A stretch of 64,000 nucleotides of DNA from Heptranchias perlo (taxonomy: Eukaryota), in contig NW_027138407.1 in NCBI RefSeq assembly GCF_035084215.1, forward strand, positions 1,488,001 through 1,552,000. The letters are read 5' to 3'. Positions 1-64,000 of this stretch are shown here, one piece after another. Below the pieces are notes generated by a model, which made no database searches, was not told the DNA's origin, and saw only the letters and a list, made by a program, of their open reading frames with translations. Positions within the stretch are counted from its first letter, which is position 1. The number at the start of each line of letters is the position of its first letter. The translations under genes and the position numbers were made by a program.

Positions 1-948
1 AATCTCGTCTGCACTTCCTCAAATATCTTACAATTTTCTGTCCAAAGATACCGCACTCCGAAATAATCCATTGTTCCTGAAGAACTCTGAGTGGTTTCTG
101 TGAGACGTGAGAATCGATGGCACAAGTCAAAGCTTTTTCATTCTATTTTTGCTGTAATGCGCTGGAGTTTAAAATAGTTTCAAATTATCACTGCAAAGAT
201 ATGATTTCTTCCTTCCTTTCTTCTTTCCTTCATTTTCATTTCTTCCAGTTACACCCTAAGATAAGATTAATTTATACAATCTAGAGAGACGTTTTACTTC
301 AAAGGGACAATAAAGTATTCCTGCACTTGAAGGCAAATTAAAATATATTCTATATTTTACATGCAAGATCAGTAATACGCGGTAGGTATCTACAGACCCC
401 TGTGTTGATTGTCTCGACAATTAATTATGTTGAGTCCGCTCTTTATTTGTAAATTAAATTCTGATGCCCAGTCTATATCTGAAGCGTCACGAGGGACATG
501 ACAAGTAGACATCTCTCTTCAAAGCTGCCGGTGTTACCACTGGATTTGAACTTGTACCAGTAAAGTGCTGATTTCAGTCATTCACTATTTCTAACCCAGG
601 AGCTTTGAACAGTGAACCCCTGAGTCCGCCCTTTGAGATGAGACAGCTTCTGAACGATGTGACCCGACGGATCTGCACCAGATCCAGGACTTTTACTTGT
701 ACATATTGTTCCTATTATCCATCCCAGTGATCTGCAAGTCGGAGCTAACAGGGGGCTGGAAATGTCTGAATTTGACCCTGGATTAAATGGTTGATAAATG
801 TCACATTTCCCAACACTGACAGCACTGACCTTAATTGTAGAAATCCGCTCGGAACAGGGTGTATTTTCGCATTAATCTCCTGTAAAATACTCTGGGATTC
901 AATCCCTGGTATTTTCCCGGATCCCACACTTGACGCCGACTTGTGCCC

Positions 949-987
949 TGTTTTTGTATGAGGCCCGAGGGACCGCTATTCACTGTG
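949..987 (-). promoter_or_regulatory. 23-RSS of V1
   Basis: CACAGTG (981-987), 23-bp spacer, ACAAAAACA (949-957) on the minus strand. Confidence 0.95.
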
Positions 988-1297
988 GGTCTCAGTGCAC
1001 AGTAATACACGGCGCTGTCTGTGATCTTCAAGCGTTTCACGGATAAGCGAAAAGTTCCTTGTGTCTGGTTGAGATTCGCTCGGAAGTGTTGAAAGCCTGA
1101 AGCCGTGTCGTTATACCCATAACTGTCGGCTCTGAGCATATACTGAGGGGCTCGGTGGTGATACTGGCGGTACCAGAATAGGCAATAGTTTGTAGCTGAG
1201 CCCGATACTGAGTAACTGCAGGTTATTGCTGAATCTGCATCCTCTTCTGATCCGACTCCTTGTTCTGACTGGGACACCGAGTCTCCGTTACTCATCT
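988..1297 (-). pseudogene. TCR alpha/delta V exon, divergent family A (V1); open frame but no leader exon (ORF/pseudogene)
   Basis: Ig-V motifs DSVSQ..C..LFWYRQ..DSAVYYCALR. Acceptor tgtttatttgcag precedes 1297 (phase 1). Canonical 23-RSS at 949-987. No leader or donor between 1298 and the CR1 fragment at ~1430. Confidence 0.8.
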
Positions 1298-1811
1298 CTG
1301 CAAATAAACAGTGGATACAAGGCGGGTTATACAGAGGGATAGACAGTGAATAGAGAAGGAGATAGGAGTTTGCATGAGAATTGGAGGATATTGTTGGAAG
1401 TTTCCAATTTAACTTTCATTGGAAAATGTACCCGAGGGAAGATGAGGAGAATTTGTTTTACGCAGCGAGTTGCAATGATCTGGAATGCACTGCATGAAAG
1501 GGTGGTGGAAGCAGATTCAACCGTAAATTTCAAAAGGGAACTCAACAAATACTTAAAGGGAAAATATTCATCGAGATATGGGAAAAGAGCAGGGTAATGG
1601 AACGAATTGGATAGCTCTTTTAAAGAGCCGGCACAGGCACGATGGGCCGAATCTCCTCCTCATGTGCTGGGCCTACTCTGATATATTATACTGTGATTTT
1701 ATGTCTGTCGGTGACGGTGCCTCTGTCTATCTGTCTGTCTTTCTTTATTTCTATCTACCTTTCAGTTCACTAGCGCACTAATTCAGTGAGAGGAAGTGAG
1801 AGGCCTTTGCA

Positions 1812-4356: not shown

Positions 4357-5993
4357 GGTGTCCTGTATAAACTTCAACAGAAAATAGCGGAATGTTTTCA
4401 ATATGTTGACACTTCTAGTCTGACATTAACGAGTAAATTCAGATCAGGGGCAGGATTCACTTATTGGAAAATTAAGGGGCGTTTCCCAAGAATCGGATTG
4501 GCTGGTCTCTCTTAACTGATGCCAGCTGTGCACCAATCACAGTTAGTTGTGGACTAATTAAATGATGGCTCTCTCCTTCTGCTTTCCTTCCCAGTCTGTG
4601 TCTGTCTGTCTCATTTACTTTCTGTTTGTCTCTCTGTCAATCTTTCTGACTCCCTCTCGCTTTTTCACTCTTTCTGTCCGCTTAACTCTGTGTCTCTATC
4701 CCTATACCACACTCTGTCTCTATTTCCGTTTCTGTCCGTCTGTTTCTCTCTCGCTGTCTCTGACACTCAATTTCTCTGTCTTTCACAATTTCTGTCTGTT
4801 GCTCTGTTTTTCTCTTTCAGTTTCTATGCTTTCCTCTGCCTCAATATCTTCCTCCCTTTCTTGCTCTCTCTCTCTGACCCACTCTCTTACCATATTTCTC
4901 TCCCTCTCTCTCTTTCTATTTCTCTATCTCTATCTCTCTCTCCTTAAGGTGAAAAGTGAAAAAAGAAGCTGCCTTCAAAGGGCATGGGATGGGAGACGTT
5001 GAAACAGCAAACGGATCTCATCAGACGTTCCGTGACTTCTTTTTCATCCCATTTGTGTCTCTCCAAACAATCATTTCCTTCAAATGGCGTTCAGAGAGCG
5101 CCCTCCTGTGCACAGCACAAGCATCACGCAGGTCATTGGAAATACAAACACAACAGATTTGCACACAGTGTGACAGAGACATTAACACACACAAACACAG
5201 ACACACACACATTTGCAGATGCAGACACGACAAAATAAACCCAGTTACACAGAATGGTTGATATCTGTGGAGATTATTGATGTCCATTCAGCTGTAGATT
5301 GTGAAAAAAGACTGATCTTTAACATGTGATCAGAGAACGCCCTCCTGTGTATATTATAATCCTCACAGACAACATTCGACACACAGATACAACCAAGGAA
5401 AGACGGACACTATCTGCTTGACTGTGCCTCTCACATGAAGAAAATAAAAAGACCAGCCATTACATGATTCATGAACGGTTTTGATAGTGTAAATAGGGAG
5501 AATTTGTTTCCAATGGTAGAAGGGTCGGGAACCAAATGACACAGATTGAAGGTAATTCTCAAAATTGCCAGAGGCAACATGGGGAAACATTTTTTTACGC
5601 ATTGTAATGAATTGTAATTATGTGGAATGCACTGTCTGAAAGGGTGGTGGAAGCAGATTCAATAGTAACTTTCAAAAGGGAATTTGATAAATACCGAATC
5701 GGAAAATATTTAAAGGACTATGGGAAAAGAGCACGGTAATAGGACTAAGTGAGTAGTTCATTTAAAGAGCCAGCACAGGCACGATGGGCCGAATAGCCTC
5801 CTCATATGCTTTGCCTACTCTGATATTATGATACTCTCATATTATGTCTGTCGGTGCCGGTGCCTCTGTCTATTTAGCTGTCTATCTTTCTTTCTATCTA
5901 TCTATCAGTTCACTAGCGCACCAATTCAGTGACAGGAGGTGAGAGACATTTGCTGGTTTTTGTACGGACTGACTGCGCCCCTGTAACAGTGTG

Positions 5994-6431
5994 GGCTGCA
6001 TTGCACAGAGATACACGGCAGAGTCAGAGACAAGAGCTCCGGTGATATTTAAAGGAACCGTTTTCTTGGCTTTGTCCAAATTAGCAGAGAACCGGTCTGG
6101 GAAATCTGAAGATTTTTCTCCCTTCTCCGCGTTATATCTCTTCAGTAAATATCTCGGAGCTTCCCCGGGATACTGGATGTACCAGAGGAGGGCTTGGGCA
6201 GCGGATGCTGTCGAGTAACTACAGTTCAGTATTACAGTCTGTCTTTCCTGAACCGTTAATTCAGGCGGATCCTGGGACACTGTGTCTTTGCCACTCGTTC
6301 CTGTAACAAAATACAGAATGTGTCAAAAGTCTGGGAATAAATATAAACCATGAAACACACACTGACCATTTAAACATAGACTCACCGGGCAGAACGATCA
6401 TTATTATCAGCAAGGAACACAAGGAGCACAT
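5994..6431 (-). CDS. TRAV: TCR alpha/delta V segment V4
   Basis: Leader 6386-6431, V exon 5994-6300, RSS 5955-5993. Confidence 0.9.
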
Positions 6432-7602
6432 GGTGTCTGGTTTAGAGTTCGACAGAAAATAGCGGAATATTTTCAATATGTTGACCCTTCTAGTCTGATA
6501 TTAAAGAGTAAACTCAGATCAGGGGCAGGATTCACTTATTGGGAAACAGAGGGACGTTTCCCACTCACACGATTGGCTGGTGTCTCGGAACTGATGCCAG
6601 CTGTGCACCAATCACAGTTAGTTGTGGACTAATTAACTGACGGCTCTCTCCGAACGCTTTCCGTCCCTGTTTGTGTCTGTCTGTCTGTCTCATTTTCTTT
6701 CTCTGTGTCTCTCCGGCAATCTTCATGTCTCCCTCTCGCTTTTTCTCCCTTTCTGTCTGCTTACCTCCGTGTCTCTATCCCTACACCACACTCTCTCTCT
6801 CAGTCTCTGTCTTAATCCGCCTGTCCCCCTCCCTCTGTCTGGGAAACTCTATTTCTCTGTCTTTCTTTGTCTGTCCCTCTCCTTATCTCAGTCATTTCTA
6901 TGCCTCCCTCTGCCTCATTCTCATCCTCTCTTTCTCTCACTCGCTACCTTTCGCACTCTCCTTCTCCGTGTCTCTGTCTCTCTGGCTCTCTCTCTCTCTC
7001 TCTCTCCATCTTTCTCTCTCTCTCTATCCTTCTCTCTCTCACTCTCTCTCTTATTATGGTGACCAGTCTGGATCCCCGGTTTCACCGGGTTCTCCCCACA
7101 ATCAATGAGTTCCATGAATAGTCACCCAGTCTTCAGGTCACGGGGGACATGACAAGTAGACATATCTCTTCAAAGCTGCCGGTGGTACCACTGGATTTGA
7201 ACTTGTACCAGTAAAGTGCTGATTTCAGTCACTCACTATTTCTAACCCTTCGGATCCCAGGGGCTTTGAAGAGTGAAGTCCCTGAGGCCGCCCTTTGAGA
7301 TGAGTCAGCATCTGAACGATGTGACCCGACGGAACTGCACCAGATACAGGATTTTTACTTGTTCAGATTGATCCTGTTATTCATCCCACAAATCTGCAAG
7401 TCGGTGATAACAGGGGGCCGGAAATGTTTGAATTTGACCCTAGATTAAGTGGTTGAGAAATGTCACATTTCCCAACACTGACAGCACTGGCCTTAACGAG
7501 AGAAAACCGCTTGAATCAGGCAGGGAATAATCATACGGGGATGGAGATGAGAAAATGTATCAGGAATGGGGAATATTGTCGGTAGGTTCCAATATCACCG
7601 AC

Positions 7603-7648
7603 CTGTGATCAGGACAATAACCAGAGTCAGGCAGAGTTTCACCTCCAT
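7603..7648 (-). pseudogene. Orphan V leader exon (family A), intact copy
   Basis: ATG GAG GTG AAA CTC TGC CTG ACT CTG GTT ATT GTC CTG ATC ACA G/gtcggt = MEVKLCLTLVIVLITG, 46 nt, phase-1 donor. The downstream sequence resembles the V1 intron. Confidence 0.75.
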
Positions 7649-8692
7649 GATTCCAGTCTGAACTCCAGAAACACGAGTCTGCCTTTACAGGGCCTGGGAT
7701 GGGAGACGCTGAAACAGCAAACGGATCTCATCAGATGTTCTGGGATTTTTTTCCTGCCCATATGTGTCTCTCTGAACAATCATTTCCTGCAGGTGGCGTT
7801 CAGAGAGCGCCCTCCTGTGGACAGCACAAGCCGCACACAGTTCATTGCAAATACAAATGCAGCAGATCTGTTCATAAACACACACAGAGAGACATTCAGA
7901 TTAACACATACAAATACAGACACACACATATGCATACACGTTAACATAAACTCAGATACACATAATGGTTGATATCTGTAGAGATTATTGATGTGCATTC
8001 AGCTGTAAATTGTTGAAGATGACTGATCATTAAGAACTGATCAGAGAACGCTCTCCTGTGTTTATTATAACCAACACATACAGCATTCGACACACAGACA
8101 CAACGAATGACAGACGGACACTAACTGCTTGACTGTGCCGCTCACATGTAGAAAATGCCATTACATGAATCATGAGCGGTTTTGATAGTTTAAATAAGGA
8201 GAAATTGCTTCCAATGGTGGAAGGGTTGGCAGCTAAGGGACACAGATTTAAGGTGATCAGCAAAATTGCCAGAGGCTACAAGACGAATCATTTTATATGC
8301 AGCGAGTTCTTATGATCTGGAATGCACTGCCTGAAAGGGTGGTGGAAGCAGATTCAATCGTAACTTTCAAAAGGGAATTGGATAAATACCTAAAGGGAAA
8401 TTATTTAAAGGGTTCCGGGGAAAGACCTGGATAATGGGACTAAGTGGGTCGTTCTTTTAAAGAGCCAGCACAGGCAAGATGGGCTGAATGGCCTCCTCAT
8501 GTGCTGTGCCCACTCTGATGCTATGACAATGTGATATTATGTCTGTCGGTGCTGGTGCCTCTGTCTATCTGGCTGCCTTTCTTTCTTTCGATCTCTCGAC
8601 ATATCAGTTTACTCAGGCACCAATTCAGTGAGTGGAGGTGAGAGACCTTTTCTGGTTTTTGTACGGTCTGGTTGCGCACCTCTAACAGTGTG

Positions 8693-9129: not shown

Positions 9130-10947
9130 GGTGTGTGGTTTAGAGTTAGACAGAAAATAGCGGAATGTTTTCAATACGTTGCCACTTCTATTCTGATATT
9201 AAAGAGTAAACTCAGATTAGGGGCAGGATTCACTTATTGTAAAACTAAGGGGCGTTTCTGAGGGACCCGATTGGCTGGTCTCACAGAACTGATGCCAAAT
9301 GTGCACCAATCACAGTTAGTTGTGGACGAATTAACTGATAGCTCTCTCCCAACGCTTTTCTTCCCTGTCTGCCTGTCTCATTTTCGTTCTCTGTGTCTCT
9401 CTGTCAATCTGCCCGTCTCCCTCTCGTTTTTTCTCTCTTTCTCTCTGCTTACCTCTGTGTCTCTATCCACATATCCCACTCTGTCTCTGTCTCCGTCTTC
9501 ATCCGGCTGTCTCTATCCCTCTACCTGTGACACTCTATTTCTCAGTCTCCATTTCTGTCTCTGTTTATTACTGTCTTCATCTCTGTCAATTTCTATACCT
9601 TTCGCTTCCTCTCTTTCTCTCCCTTTCTGTCTGTCTCACTTTGTTTCTCTGTCTCTCTCTCTCGCTCTCTCTCTTTCTCTTTCTCTCTCTCTCAATCTTT
9701 CTCTCTCTCGCTCCCTCGTCTCCCAACATTAACAGAAATGACCTTAACGAGAGAAAGCCGCATGAATCAGCCAGAGAATAATCATCCGGAGATGGAGATG
9801 GGAAAATATATCAGGATTGGGGAATATTGTTGGAAGATTTCAATATCACCGACGTTTCTTCAGGACAATAACCAGAGTCAGGCAAAGTTGCACCTCCATG
9901 ATAGCAGTCTGAACTCCAGAAACACGAGACTGCAATTACAGGGCCTGGGATGGGAGACGCTGAAACAGCAAAGGAATCTCATCAGATGTTCTGCGATTTC
10001 TTTTTCTGCCCATCTGGGTCTCTCGAAACAATCGTTTCCTGCAGGTGGCGTTCAGAGATCGCCCTCCTGTGGACAGCACAAGCCTCACAGAGTTCATTGC
10101 AAATACAAATGCAACATATTTGCTCATAAACACACACAGAGAGATTAACACACACAAACACAGACAAACACACATATGCATACGTTAACATACGTTAACA
10201 CGTTAACATAAACCCAGATACATTTAATGGTTGATATTTGTGGAGATTATTGATGTCCATTCAGCTGTAAGTTGTTGAAGATGACTGATCTTTAACAAGT
10301 GATCAGAGAACGCCCTCCTGTGTATATTGTCATCCCCATATACAGCATTCGACACACAGACACAACCACGGACAGACGGACACTAACGGCTTGACTGTGC
10401 CTCTCACATGAAGAAAATGCAAAGACCAGCCATTACATGACTCATGAACGGTTTTGACAGAGTAAATAAGGAGAAATTGTTTCCAATGGTAGAAGGGTCG
10501 GTAACCAGAGGACACAGATTTGAGGTAATCTGCAAACTTGCCAGAGGCGACATGAGGAAACATTGTTTTACGCAGCGAGTTGTGATGATCTGGAATGCAC
10601 TGCCTGAAAGGGCGGTGGAAGCAGATTCAATAGTAACTTTCAAAAGGGAATTCGATAAATACCTCAAGGGAAAATATGCAAAGGACTATGGGGAAAGAGC
10701 AGGGTAATGTGACTAAGTGGGTAGTTCTTTTAAGGAGGAAGCACAGGCAAGATGGGCTGAATGGCCTCCTCATGTGCTGTGCCCACTCTGATACTATGAT
10801 ACGATGTCTGTCGGTACCTCCATATATTTAGCTATCTTTCTTTCTTTCTATCTATCTATCAGTTCACCAGCGCACCAATTCAGTGAGAGGAGGTGAGAGA
10901 CCTTTCCTGGTTTTTGTACGGTCTGACTGCGCCCCTGTAACAGTGTG

Positions 10948-12578: not shown

Positions 12579-12624
12579 CTGTGATCAGGACAATAACCAG
12601 GGGCAGGCAGAGTCCCACCTCCAT
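12579..12624 (-). pseudogene. Orphan leader exon (family A)
   Basis: MEVGLCLPLVIVLITG/gt, 46 nt. Confidence 0.7.
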
Positions 12625-15717: not shown

Positions 15718-16155
15718 GGCTCCATGGCACAGAGATACACGGCAGAGTCAGAGACAAGAACCCCGGTGATACTTAAAGGAACCGTTTTCTTGGTTTTGTC
15801 CAAATTAGCAGAGAACCGGTCTGCGAAATCTGAAGATTTATCTCCCTGCTCCCCGCTATATCTCCTCAGTAAATACCGCGGAGCTTCCCCGGGATACTGA
15901 ATGTACCAGAAGAGAGTTGGGGCAGCGGATGCTGTCGAGTAACTACAGTTCATTATTATGGTCTGTCTTTCCTGAACCGTTAATTCAGGCGGATCCTGGG
16001 ACACTGAGTCTTTGCCACTCGTCCCTGTAACAAAATACAGAATGTGTCAAAAGTCTGGGAATAAATAGAACCCATAAAACACATACTGACCATTTAAACA
16101 TAGACTCACCGGGCAGCACGATCATTATTATCAGTAAGGGACACGAGGAGCACAA
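15718..16155 (-). pseudogene. TRAV: TCR alpha/delta V segment V8; leader start codon ATG>TTG (ORF/pseudogene)
   Basis: V exon 15718-16024 is open. Leader 16110-16155 starts TTG (plus-strand caa 16153-16155). RSS 15679-15717 has nonamer GCAAAAACC. Confidence 0.8.
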
Positions 16156-17293: not shown

Positions 17294-17339
17294 CTGTGAT
17301 CAGGACAATAACAAGAGTCAGGCAGAGTCCCCCCTCCAT
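17294..17339 (-). pseudogene. Orphan leader exon (family A)
   Basis: MEGGLCLTLVIVLITG/gt, 46 nt. Confidence 0.7.
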
Positions 17340-19455: not shown

Positions 19456-21579
19456 CGATCCCCGGTTTCACTAGCTTCTCTCCACAATCAATGAGTTCCA
19501 TTAATAGTCAGAGTCTTAAGGTCACGAGGGACATGACAAGTAGGCATATCTCTTCAAAGCTGCCTCTCTCTGCCTCAATCTATTCCTTTCTTTATCGCTC
19601 TCTCTCTCTCTCCCTCTATCCCACCTTCTCTCTCTCGCTCACTCTCTCTCTCTCTCTGGATCTCCCTCGTTCTTTCTCTCTCTCTTTCTCTTTCTCTCTC
19701 TCTCTCTCACGCTTTCATTAAGGACTAGTGAAAAAATATCTGAATCACTCTCGATCCCGGGTACCACGGCGTTCTCTCCATAATTATTGAGCTCCATTAA
19801 TAGTCACAGTCTTAATGTCACGAGGGAGATGACAAGTAGACATATCTCTTAAAAGCTGCCGGCGGTACCAATGGATTTGAAGTTGTACCAGTGAAGTGCT
19901 GATTTCAGTCAGTCACTACTTCTAACGCTTCGGATTCCAGGAGCTTTGAAGAGTGAAGCCCCTGAGGCCGCCATTTCAGATGAGACAGCTTCTGAAGGCA
20001 GTGACCCGATGGATCTGCACCAGATCCAGGACTTTTACTTGTACAGATTGATCCTGTTATCCATCCCCGAGATCTGCAAGTCGGTGCTAACACGGGGCTG
20101 GAAATGTCTGAATTTGACACTGGATGAAGTGGTTGAGAAATGTCACACTTCCCAACACTGACAGCACTGACCTCAACGAGAGAAAACCGCTTCAATCAGC
20201 CTGAGAATAATCACCCGGAGATGGAGATGGAAAAAAGTATCAGGATTGGGGAATATTGATGGAAGGTTCAAATATCACCGGCCTATGATCAGGACAATAA
20301 CCAGAGTCAGACAGAGTTTCATCTCCATGATTCCAGTCTGAACTCCAGAAACACTAGACTGCCTTTGCCAGGCCTGCGATGAGAGATGCTGAAAGAGCAA
20401 AGGGATCTCATGAGATGTTCTGGGATTTCCTTTTCTGTCCTTTTGTGTTTCTCGAAACAATCATTTCCCGCAGATGGTGTTCAGAGAGCGCCCTGCTTTG
20501 GACAACCGAAGCCTCACAAAGTTCATTGAAAACACAAACACAACAGATATCGTCCAAACACACATGGAGAGACGGCGAGATTAACACACACAAATACAGA
20601 CACAGACACATGCATGTGCATTCACGTCAACATAAACCTAGATACACATAATGGTTGATATCTGTGGAGATTATTGATGTGAATTCAGCTCTAAGTTGTT
20701 GAAGATGACTGAGGTTTAACAAGTGATCGGAGAACGCCCTCCTGTGTATTTTATAATCCTCACATACAGCATTCGACACACTCACACAACCACGGACAGA
20801 CGGACACTAACGGCTTGACTGTGCCTCTCACATGAAGAAAATGCAAAGACCAGCCATTACATGACTCATGAACGGTTTTGATATTGTAACTAAGGAGAAA
20901 TTGTTTCCAATGGTAGAAGGTTCGGTAACCAGAGGACACAGATATAAGGTGATCTGCAAAATTGCCAGAGGCAACATGAGGAAACATTTTTTTATGCAGC
21001 GAGTTTTTATGATCAGGAATGCACTGCCTGAAAGGGCGGAGGAAGCAAATTCAGTGGTAACTTTCAAAAGGGAATTCGATAAATACTGGAAGGGAAAATA
21101 TTTAAAGGGCTATAGGGAAGGAGCAGGATAATGGGACTAAGTGGGTCGTTCTTTAAAATAGCCAGCACAGGCAAGATGGGCTGAATGGCCTCCTCGTGTG
21201 CTGTGCCCACTCTGATATTATGATGCGGTGATGTTATGTCAGTCGCTGCCTCTGTCCATCTAGATTTCTTTCTTTCGTTCTATCTCTCTACATATCAGTT
21301 TACTAGCGCACCAATTCAGTGAGAGAGCAGGGTAATGGGACTAATTGGTTCGCTCTTTTAAACAACCGGTATAGTCACGACGGGCGGAATGGCCTCCTCA
21401 TGTGCAGTGCCTACTCTCACACCATGATACTATGATACTTTGTCTGTCGGTGCCTCAATATATCTATTTATCTTTCTTTCTATCTACATATCAGATCACG
21501 AGCGCACCAATTCAGTGAGAGGGGTTGAGAGACCTTTGCGGGTTTTTGTACGGTCTGACTGCGATCCTGTAACAGTGTG

Positions 21580-43583: not shown

Positions 43584-43629
43584 CTGTGAACAGGACAATA
43601 ACCAGAGTCAGGCAAAGTTTCACATCCAT
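43584..43629 (-). pseudogene. Orphan leader exon (family A)
   Basis: MDVKLCLTLVIVLFTG/gt; duplicate at 50593-50638. Confidence 0.7.
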
Positions 43630-62171: not shown

Positions 62172-64000
62172 GGTGTGTGGTTTAGAGTTCGACAGAAAAT
62201 AACGGAATGTTTTCAATATGTTGACGCTTCTTGTCTGGTATTAAAGAGTAAACTCAGATCAGGGGCAGGATTCACTTATTGGAAAACTAAGGGGCGTTTC
62301 CCAGGGACCGGATTGGCTGATCTCTCAGCATTGATGCCAGCTGTGCACCAATCACAGTTAGTTGTGGACGAATTAACTGATGGCTCTCTCCCAACGCTTT
62401 CCTCCCCTGTCTGTGTCTGTCAGCCTCATTTTCTTTCTCTGTGTCTCTCTGTCAATCTTTCTGTCTCCCTCTCTTTCTCTCTTTCTGTGTGCTTACCTCT
62501 GTGTCTTTATCCCTATACCGCACTCTGTCTCTATTTCCGTTTCTGTCCCTCTCTCTCGATCTCTCTCTGTCCGTGACACTCTATTTCTCTGCCATTCACT
62601 AATTCTGTCTGTTACTCTGTTTTTCTCTTTCAGTTTCTATGCCTCCCTCTGTCTCAATCTCTTCCTCCCCTTTCTCGCTCCAAATCTCTCTGTGTGTCCC
62701 AATCTCTTTCTTTATTTCTCTCCCTCTCTCTCTTTCTTTCTCTCTTTCACTCTCTCTCTCACTCTTTCTATCTCTCTCTCATTAAGGTGACAAGTAAAAA
62801 ATATCCGAATCAGTCTCGATCCCCGGTATGACGGAGTTCTCGCCACAATCAATGAGCTCCATTCATAGTCACCCAGTCTTAAGGTCACGAGGGACACGAG
62901 AAGTAGAGAAATCTCTTCAAAGCTGCCGGCGGATTTGAACTTGTACCAGTAAAGTGCTGATTTCAGTCAGTCACAATTTCTAACGCTTCGGATCCCAGGG
63001 GCTTTGATGAGTGAAGTCCCTGAGGCCTCCCTTTGAGATGAGACAGTTTCTGAACGATGAGACCCGATGGATCTGCACCAGATCCAGGACTTTTACTTGT
63101 ACAGATTGATTATGCTCTTCATTCCAGAGGTCTGCAAGTCGGTGATAACAGGGGGCTGGAAATGTCTGAATCCGGCACTGAACTAATTGGTTGAGAAATG
63201 TCACATTTCCCAACACTGACAGCACTGACTTTAACGAGAGAAAACCGCTTGAATCAGCCTGGGATGAATCAGCTGGAGAAGAAGATGGGAAAATGTTTTA
63301 GGTTTGGGGAATATTATTGGAAGGTTCCAATATCACCGACCTGTGAACAGGGCAATAAGTAGATCAGGCAAAGTTTCACGTCCACTATTTCAGTCTAAAC
63401 TCCAGAAAAAAAGAGACTGTCTTTAAGGGGCCTACGACGGAAGGCGCTAAAACAGCGGAGGGATCTGATCAGATGTTCTGCGATTTATTTTTGTTCAAAT
63501 CAGCCTCGATCCCCAATATCACGGGGATTTGTGTCTCTCTGAACAATCATTTCCTGCATATGGCTATCAGAGAGCGCCCTCCTGTGGACAGTACAAGCCT
63601 CACACAGTTCATTGCAAATACAAACACAACAGATACACTCATAAACACGCACATGGAGACATTGAGAGATTAACACACACAAATACAGACAAACATATAT
63701 TTGCATACACGCCAACATAAACACAGATGCACCTAATGGTTGATATCTGTGGAGATGATTGATGTGCATTCAGCTCTAAGTTGTGCAAAATGACAGATCT
63801 TTAACAAATGATCAGAGAACGCCCACCTATGTGTACAATAATCCTCCCACAAAACATTCAACACACAGGTACAACCACGGACAGAGAGGCACTAACTGCT
63901 TGATTGTACCTCTCACATCAAGAAAATGCAAAGACCAGCCAAAATATGACACATGAACGGTTTTGACAGTGAAAATAAGGAGAATTTGTTTCCAATTGGA

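Follow-up and report, generated by a model that had tools for sequence, protein, structure and literature searches.

A repeated orphan leader exon of a second TCR alpha/delta-type V family in a shark V array, probably a passenger relic

The window analysed here is a 64,000-nucleotide stretch of Heptranchias perlo DNA (C240:1488001-1552000, on one contig of a 3.25-Gb genome), in which the V exons lie on the minus strand. It contains an array of 21 V exons of one family, B (V-B), and a single exon of a second family, A, named V1. A domain search placed the domains of family B and of V1 in the V-set, and the PDB matches of single V domains were for the most part TCR alpha chains. The V domain is thus closest to TCR alpha/delta and carries a 23-nt RSS spacer, which was found in 48 of the 49 V-B of the locus. 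The closest database relatives of V-B were skate and Mustelus proteins (53-56% identity), one of which has an MCSLLCLL leader matching that of V-B. From the V-set domains, the TCR alpha matches, the 23-nt spacers and these relatives, we infer that the array is a cartilaginous-fish TCR alpha/delta V region. A C1-set search of the same contig returned four matches, forming two putative exon pairs at C240:1058314-1105300 (1.06-1.11 Mb).

Family A splits into an intact subgroup A1, which includes V1, and a subgroup A2. V1 and the features of one repeat unit are given below.

988-1408, minus strand: V1, family A (A1); exon 988-1297 open, RSS 949-987, intron cut at ~1408, no leader
5955-5993, minus strand: V-B RSS, CACACTG-23-ACAAAAACC, serving the V-B exon at 5994-6300
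5994-6300, minus strand: V-B exon, open; its acceptor at 6300 is the candidate target of the 7603 orphan, 1302 nt apart
6386-6431, minus strand: own leader of the next V-B gene, 46 nt, phase 1, GTGAGT donor; 85-nt splice in RNA contigs
7137-7520, minus strand: V-A 3' flank, A1-like, homologous to window positions 486-858
7209-7228, minus strand: conserved 20-mer in the flank, candidate element (P = 0.002, column shuffles)
7513-7523, minus strand: deletion junction, approximate; here the A2 intron (at +81) and the A1 3' flank both have the hexamer CCTGTT
7521-7602, minus strand: 5' part (~82 nt) of the 128-nt V-A intron, without acceptor, from alignment to intact A genes
7603-7648, minus strand: orphan family-A leader exon, 46 nt, MEVKLCLTLVIVLIT plus a phase-1 G, donor CAG/GTCGGT
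7649-7860, minus strand: family-A upstream region, A2-like, a putative promoter, with the proximal CACAGGAGGGCG motif at 7808-7819
8049-8060, minus strand: distal copy of the CACAGGAG-type motif, from the conservation profile
8230-8530, plus strand: high-copy retroelement fragment between V-B and the A upstream region, with a translated tail

The V-B heptamer is CACACTG in 42 of 49 copies of the whole locus, and A1 genes use the consensus CACAGTG. The retroelement fragment is presumably CR1, a label taken from its translated tail, and a paralogous segment of it reached very high depth in the RNA contig mapping.

An earlier, sequence-only reading of the window had pointed to a minus-strand, 46-nt, leader-like exon here, and this is present at 7603-7648 with a phase-1 G and a GT donor. 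It has the length and phase of the true leaders, as had been said, the A orphan and the B leader both being 46 nt long and in phase 1. The proposed matches to V1 were also recovered: the flank at 486-858 aligned to 7137-7520 with 87.5% identity (E = 3e-136), and intron positions 1353-1408 matched the orphan intron remnants at 75-80% (best E = 5e-7). Given these two alignments, the orphan module is not a chance resemblance.

V1 is leaderless, and therefore proof of the leader's identity needed paralogues outside the window. Seven complete family-A genes, all outside the window, have this leader, a 128-nt intron, an open V-A exon and an RSS. RNA evidence came from three assembled contig sets of one sample, none of them on record as RNA; in run X1, one contig joins the A leader to V-A, skipping 128 nt with GT..AG ends (CT..AC as mapped). 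The relatives of V1 therefore carry the same leader, as the earlier reading had supposed. Since seven intact genes share it and an RNA contig splices it to V-A, the orphan exon (46 nt, 7603-7648) is identified as the genuine leader of another TCR alpha/delta-type V family, A. Its intact paralogues are TCR V genes, with a leader exon spliced to a V exon. The 7603 module has neither V exon nor RSS and is a remnant, not a V gene, because a 485-nt gap has taken acceptor, exon and RSS.

The idea that the exon is a chance open reading frame or an assembly artefact, unrelated to V leaders, retains practically no probability. The leader recurs in seven intact genes and is spliced in RNA, its junction is common to 39 diverged copies, and the upstream modules are 87% alike on average (37 orphans aligned, leaving aside two with a LINE upstream and two A3 genes). 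These observations refute it, and nothing was found in its favour.

Orphan leaders number 39 in the 420 kb examined (C240 1.01-1.04 plus 1.26-1.65 Mb), 21 of them within the window. Six of 61 matches of the leader pattern search were dropped as non-leaders, and partial leaders at C240:1337518 and 1561499 are excluded from the 39. Genome-wide, all 40 scored matches (of 65 candidates) sit on the contig of the window. Besides the copy at 7603, the window holds the following.

9854-9899, minus strand: exon end AAC/GT; core ends LKK
12579-12624, minus strand: GT donor; Pro in core
17294-17339, minus strand: GT donor; above a V-B (acceptor 16024) whose own leader starts with TTG
20283-20328, minus strand: GC donor; without Asp
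23152-23197, minus strand: copy without in-frame ATG; twin at 63341
25433-25478, minus strand: copy with a 1-nt deletion, separated from its own upstream region by a 1.58-kb LINE piece at 25481-27060
29241-60491 (span), minus strand: 11 copies with GC donor and Asp in core; exon ends 29241, 32092, 34945, 37797, 40688, 46302, 47729, 53317, 54744, 57596 and 60446
43584-43629, minus strand: GT donor, MDVKLCLTLVIVLFT; twin at 50593-50638

The five GT-donor copies named in the sequence-only reading are all present, but not all of them encode MEVKLCLTLVIVLITG as claimed: 12579 has MEVGLCLPLVIVLIT, 17294 has MEGGLCLTLVIVLIT, and 43584 and 50593 have MDVKLCLTLVIVLFT. Its decaying copies are likewise all there, but the list missed four, at 9854, 23152, 25433 and 63341. 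Together, the 21 orphans comprise four intact copies, one with Pro in the core, 12 with a GC donor, one with AAC/GT and three without start or frame. Their proposed position upstream of most family-B genes is correct, as they lie 0.85-1.6 kb above 18 of the 21 V-B exons of the window. Three further units, near 2891, 4958 and 14707, retain the upstream region alone and have lost the leader; V-B is open there.

The LINE piece at 25481-27060 (1.58 kb) contains a reverse-transcriptase frame (Pfam RVT_1, E = 2e-36) and a short A tail. It was inserted directly upstream of the orphan ATG, and near full-length copies (92-99%) occur elsewhere in the locus.

Global alignment of the module with an intact A gene gave a single 485-nt gap, which begins near intron position +82 and ends roughly 90 nt past the RSS, with identities of 81% before and 85-93% after it. 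The distance from the donor to a landmark in the flank was 112-113 nt in all 28 orphans (of 39) where the landmark was found, versus 598-599 nt in 7/7 intact A1 genes; for the remaining 11 orphans, the four displayed all had the same junction followed by a second deletion. All orphan copies found thus trace to one junction, at which acceptor, V exon and RSS went missing, a net 485 bp. A germline deletion made by RAG was considered and rejected, because the right break lies some 90 nt past the nonamer and not at the heptamer. Undeleted versions of the unit survive: between C240 1.31 and 1.35 Mb the array alternates A and B, with A intact, pseudogenic or deleted, and the distance from leader A to the V-B acceptor is 1737-1795 nt in four intact cassettes versus ~1270-1325 nt in singly deleted ones. 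An ancestral cassette of two V genes, A plus B, had been proposed from the window, and such cassettes do exist elsewhere in the locus.

The sequences 5' and 3' of the junction have their closest relatives in different A subgroups. On the 5' side, the 150 nt upstream of the orphans were closer to A2 in 37/39 copies and the intron in 39/39; the tree placed orphans with A2 (support 100/98), and forcing them with A1 was rejected (p-AU 2.5e-7). On the 3' side, the flank adjoining the junction was closer to A1 in all 38 orphans compared, with identities of 0.88 to A1 and 0.75 to A2, although forcing orphans with A2 in the flank tree gave a borderline p-AU of 0.046 with two outgroups and 0.287 with one. 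Both sets of trees used 12 representative orphans of the 39 (11 in the flank trees). At the join, the A2 intron and the A1 flank both contain the hexamer CCTGTT, in the same register. Running against a mosaic, the leader exon itself was closer to A1 in 35 of the 39 orphans, which may reflect drift among the A2 pseudogenes. We read the junction as a probable mosaic that took its 5' side from the A2 pseudogene subgroup and its 3' flank from the intact A1 subgroup. An earlier proposal that about 490 bp were deleted before amplification agrees with the net 485-bp loss and the shared junction, but the event was probably a join between two paralogues and not an excision inside one gene, because of this grouping of its two sides.

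A single microhomology join between two paralogues is the simplest reading. The break would have joined an A2-type intron to an A1-type 3' flank at a short CCTG(TT) microhomology, and the real loss was perhaps several kb, including an already dead V. The A2-type parent would probably have been dead beforehand through the TAA at V codon 12, which is present in 6/6 A2 exons and in 2/2 A3 exons. The same outcome would be expected from a short deletion that came after an earlier crossover within the lost 485 nt. The A2 pseudogenes (C240:1312340-1347986) have, besides the codon-12 stop, a ~290-nt inverted 3' flank in all five, of the six, in which the flank was found.

After the junction formed, the orphan leaders accumulated damage. 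Of the 39, 26 lack a start, a reading frame, a GT donor or an AG exon end, 11 are intact and two have Pro in the core. The copies are related to each other, so their counts are not independent; on the trees the lesions fall into at least six separate lineages, a minimum read from clades, and the GC-donor lineage alone has 14 copies. This is the largest recent expansion, and 13 of its 14 members have Asp in the hydrophobic core. GC donors can function where the rest of the splice site is strong; the GCCGGT donor of these copies is not a strong site. As for V-B, all 49 exons are open, own leaders are intact in 46 of 49, and the ratio of N to S alleles in the exon is 0.68 (p = 0.003). For leaders the same ratio was 0.93 in the working B leader and 1.53 in the orphans (p = 0.42); the test is without power and cannot decide on orphan use, because working B leaders also give about 1. 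Variability of the orphan leader was 0.70 variant alleles per site, versus 0.86-1.06 in its surroundings, a ratio that resembles that of the working B leader. Fisher's test gave p = 0.02 against all non-coding sequence and 0.12 against intron plus flank, and 15% of 46-nt windows vary as little. Two orphans with a LINE upstream were excluded from the variability and N/S alignments.

Leader identity, one common junction with a net 485-bp loss, amplification and many later lesions are established for this module. We read it, with a probability of about 0.63, as a family-A leader with its upstream region and half an intron that has been copied together with the adjoining V-B gene and is likely a functionless passenger. 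Unequal crossing-over would have spread the unit of V-B plus relic because V-B copies were favoured, and the A leader, no longer needed, would decay. Against this reading stand the 11 of 39 leaders that are intact, the lower variability of the leader and the conserved short motifs in the module.

The intact leaders bear on a different proposal, in which they would be working alternative first exons, their in-frame splice to V-B giving a second signal peptide and a second 5' end. Once the V-B below had rearranged, the promoter would become active, and the orphan donor, for want of an acceptor of its own, would splice onward. We regard both the use and this mechanism as unlikely. The anatomy is suitable, in that a leader of another family lies upstream, a few kb off, with the same length (46 nt) and phase; both introns are in phase 1, as had been noted earlier, so an orphan-to-V-B joint would be in frame. 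Judged from sequence, a second promoter and leader for V-B, or germline transcripts, are structurally possible. Between the 7603 donor and the 6300 acceptor, a crude scan found no polyA hexamer and no rival acceptor-like site, and 11/39 orphan leaders are intact. In contrast, the paths from 43584 and 50593 hold an acceptor-like site and polyA hexamers, and those from 12579 and 17294 each have one additional acceptor-like site. Also telling against this use, 46 of 49 V-B have their own leader, with the own-leader splice seen in RNA; the largest recent expansion has a GC donor with Asp in the core in 13/14 copies; and the orphan upstream region is just ~70% like that of expressed A1 genes.

The case of 17294 is suggestive, as the V-B at 16024 is open, has a TTG in its own leader and lies 1270 nt below this GT-donor orphan. 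An exonless V remnant co-opted as a second promoter and signal-peptide exon for the V-B family, with 17294 rescuing an ATG-less V-B, is an improbable arrangement. The V-B leader in question (16110-16155, minus strand) has TTG for ATG, and an in-frame ATG is also absent downstream of the nearest upstream stop; the V exon that belongs to this leader is open.

In run X1, the joint of B leader to V-B was found in three contigs in one mapping and in two in another, and that of A leader to V-A in one contig. Among the joints listed, none led from an orphan donor into a V-B acceptor; contigs of one sample drop rare forms and show presence, not absence, so this blank is given no weight. One contig runs unspliced through the donor over 7588-7719, with 15 differing letters. 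A joint at 406-2945, from a V-B exon to the B leader of another unit, was read as cross-mapping of paralogues. Among V-B proteins, 0 of 3 matches (123 candidates) had an A-type leader; all were genomic predictions or short contigs and are uninformative on this point. At L087:4654-4895, a spliced contig of an intact A1 gene extends ~196 nt above the ATG, and this extension suggests a long 5' UTR for that gene.

The conserved motifs bear on another reading, in which the peptide is irrelevant and the module is retained for DNA elements that help open or loop the neighbouring V-B for recombination. The elements would be two CACAGGAGGGCG-type upstream sites, the flank 20-mer and possibly an active promoter. 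The CACAGGAGGGCG-type motif lies about -171 and -412 from the ATG and is found once or twice in nearly every unit, including units without a leader. Its proximal copy has 14 summed differences versus a mean of 47 per 12 nt, which places it in the lowest 1% of windows by summed differences and 20% by allele count; the distal copy is within the lowest 1-8%. The 20-mer at 7209-7228 has 10 alleles versus ~25 expected (P = 0.002, column shuffles). However, the flank with the 20-mer is deleted in about one third of the copies (depth 38 to 25), where V-B is still open, the choice of windows followed inspection of the profile, and column shuffles take no account of relatedness or gene conversion. Considering that the motifs were picked post hoc and that the flank is lost in a third of copies, they are leads only, and we hold this reading to be doubtful. 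The 20-mer is near-invariant across orphan and A1 flanks and partly retained in the inverted A2 flanks, and the CACAGGAGGGCG-type motif (7808-7819, 8049-8060 and paralogues) also precedes intact A genes. The CACAGGAGGGCG-type motif and the 20-mer may resemble CTCF sites; the title of one paper reportedly links CTCF to Tcra recombination.

V1 is the mirror image of the orphan leaders. At 949-1420 (minus strand) it has an open exon and a consensus RSS but neither leader nor upstream region, its intron ending at ~1408, where it abuts a V-B 3' flank. The nearest phase-1 donor is that of the B leader at 2243-2288, 945 nt above the V1 acceptor, so that V1, too, might borrow a leader, although the interval contains an AATAAA and other acceptors.

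Leader borrowing is known from mouse TRBV12-2 (Vb5.1) and TRBV13-2 (Vb8.2), where Chou et al. in 1987 reportedly found the leader of the former spliced onto the latter. A recent account counts 46,029 of 69,248 TRBV13-2 transcripts with the TRBV12-2 leader (10.64898/2026.01.30.702900), a precedent in favour of such use here. In both loci two V families are interleaved, and a leader of one lies upstream of a gene of the other with a phase that is compatible. In mouse, on that account, an intact gene donates the leader, and chimeric mRNA has been measured and is abundant, whereas here the donor is exonless, two thirds of the copies are damaged and the likeness is one of anatomy.

The array also resembles the human and bovine TRB loci, for which duplicated multi-subgroup units, later deletions and V relics are described (PMC2685407); in both cases a tandem block of several V subgroups shows later deletions and birth-and-death evolution. 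Unlike the relics described there, the module is a clean leader plus upstream region, without V exon and RSS, present in 39 copies, with a junction that seems to link two paralogous subgroups. For cartilaginous fish, an account of TCR alpha/delta V genes describes 17 germline segments (PMC5931798). The genes here share its organisation of leader, short intron, V exon and 23-spacer RSS, whereas the accessible portion of that account is silent on intergenic leader relics. A literature search, with subscription shark-TCR papers outside its coverage, did not turn up a description of either this shark array or amplified orphan leaders. In the present locus a two-subgroup block is tandemly repeated, undeleted versions are present, and a disabling lesion is shared with further decay on top. 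Our best reading is that the module belongs to a type already known, the V relic within a duplicated homology unit, and that it also has the anatomy for leader borrowing.

The relic records the growth of a TCR V array in a cartilaginous fish: of two families that alternated, one was lost through a junction that probably joined paralogues, and the unit was then copied dozens of times. For annotation, orphan leaders should neither be counted as genes nor be paired with V-B by default. If intact leaders did splice to V-B, the array would amount to a natural experiment on leader borrowing in many copies, in which intact, GC-donor and leaderless units lie next to each other and serve as internal controls. 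It would then be a repeated, dedicated form of a phenomenon that in mouse, in the source cited above, is abundant but limited to TRBV12/13.

Elsewhere in the locus, at C240:1328641-1328851, a tandem pair of B leaders lies above a single V-B exon, and the nearer of the two begins with GTG.
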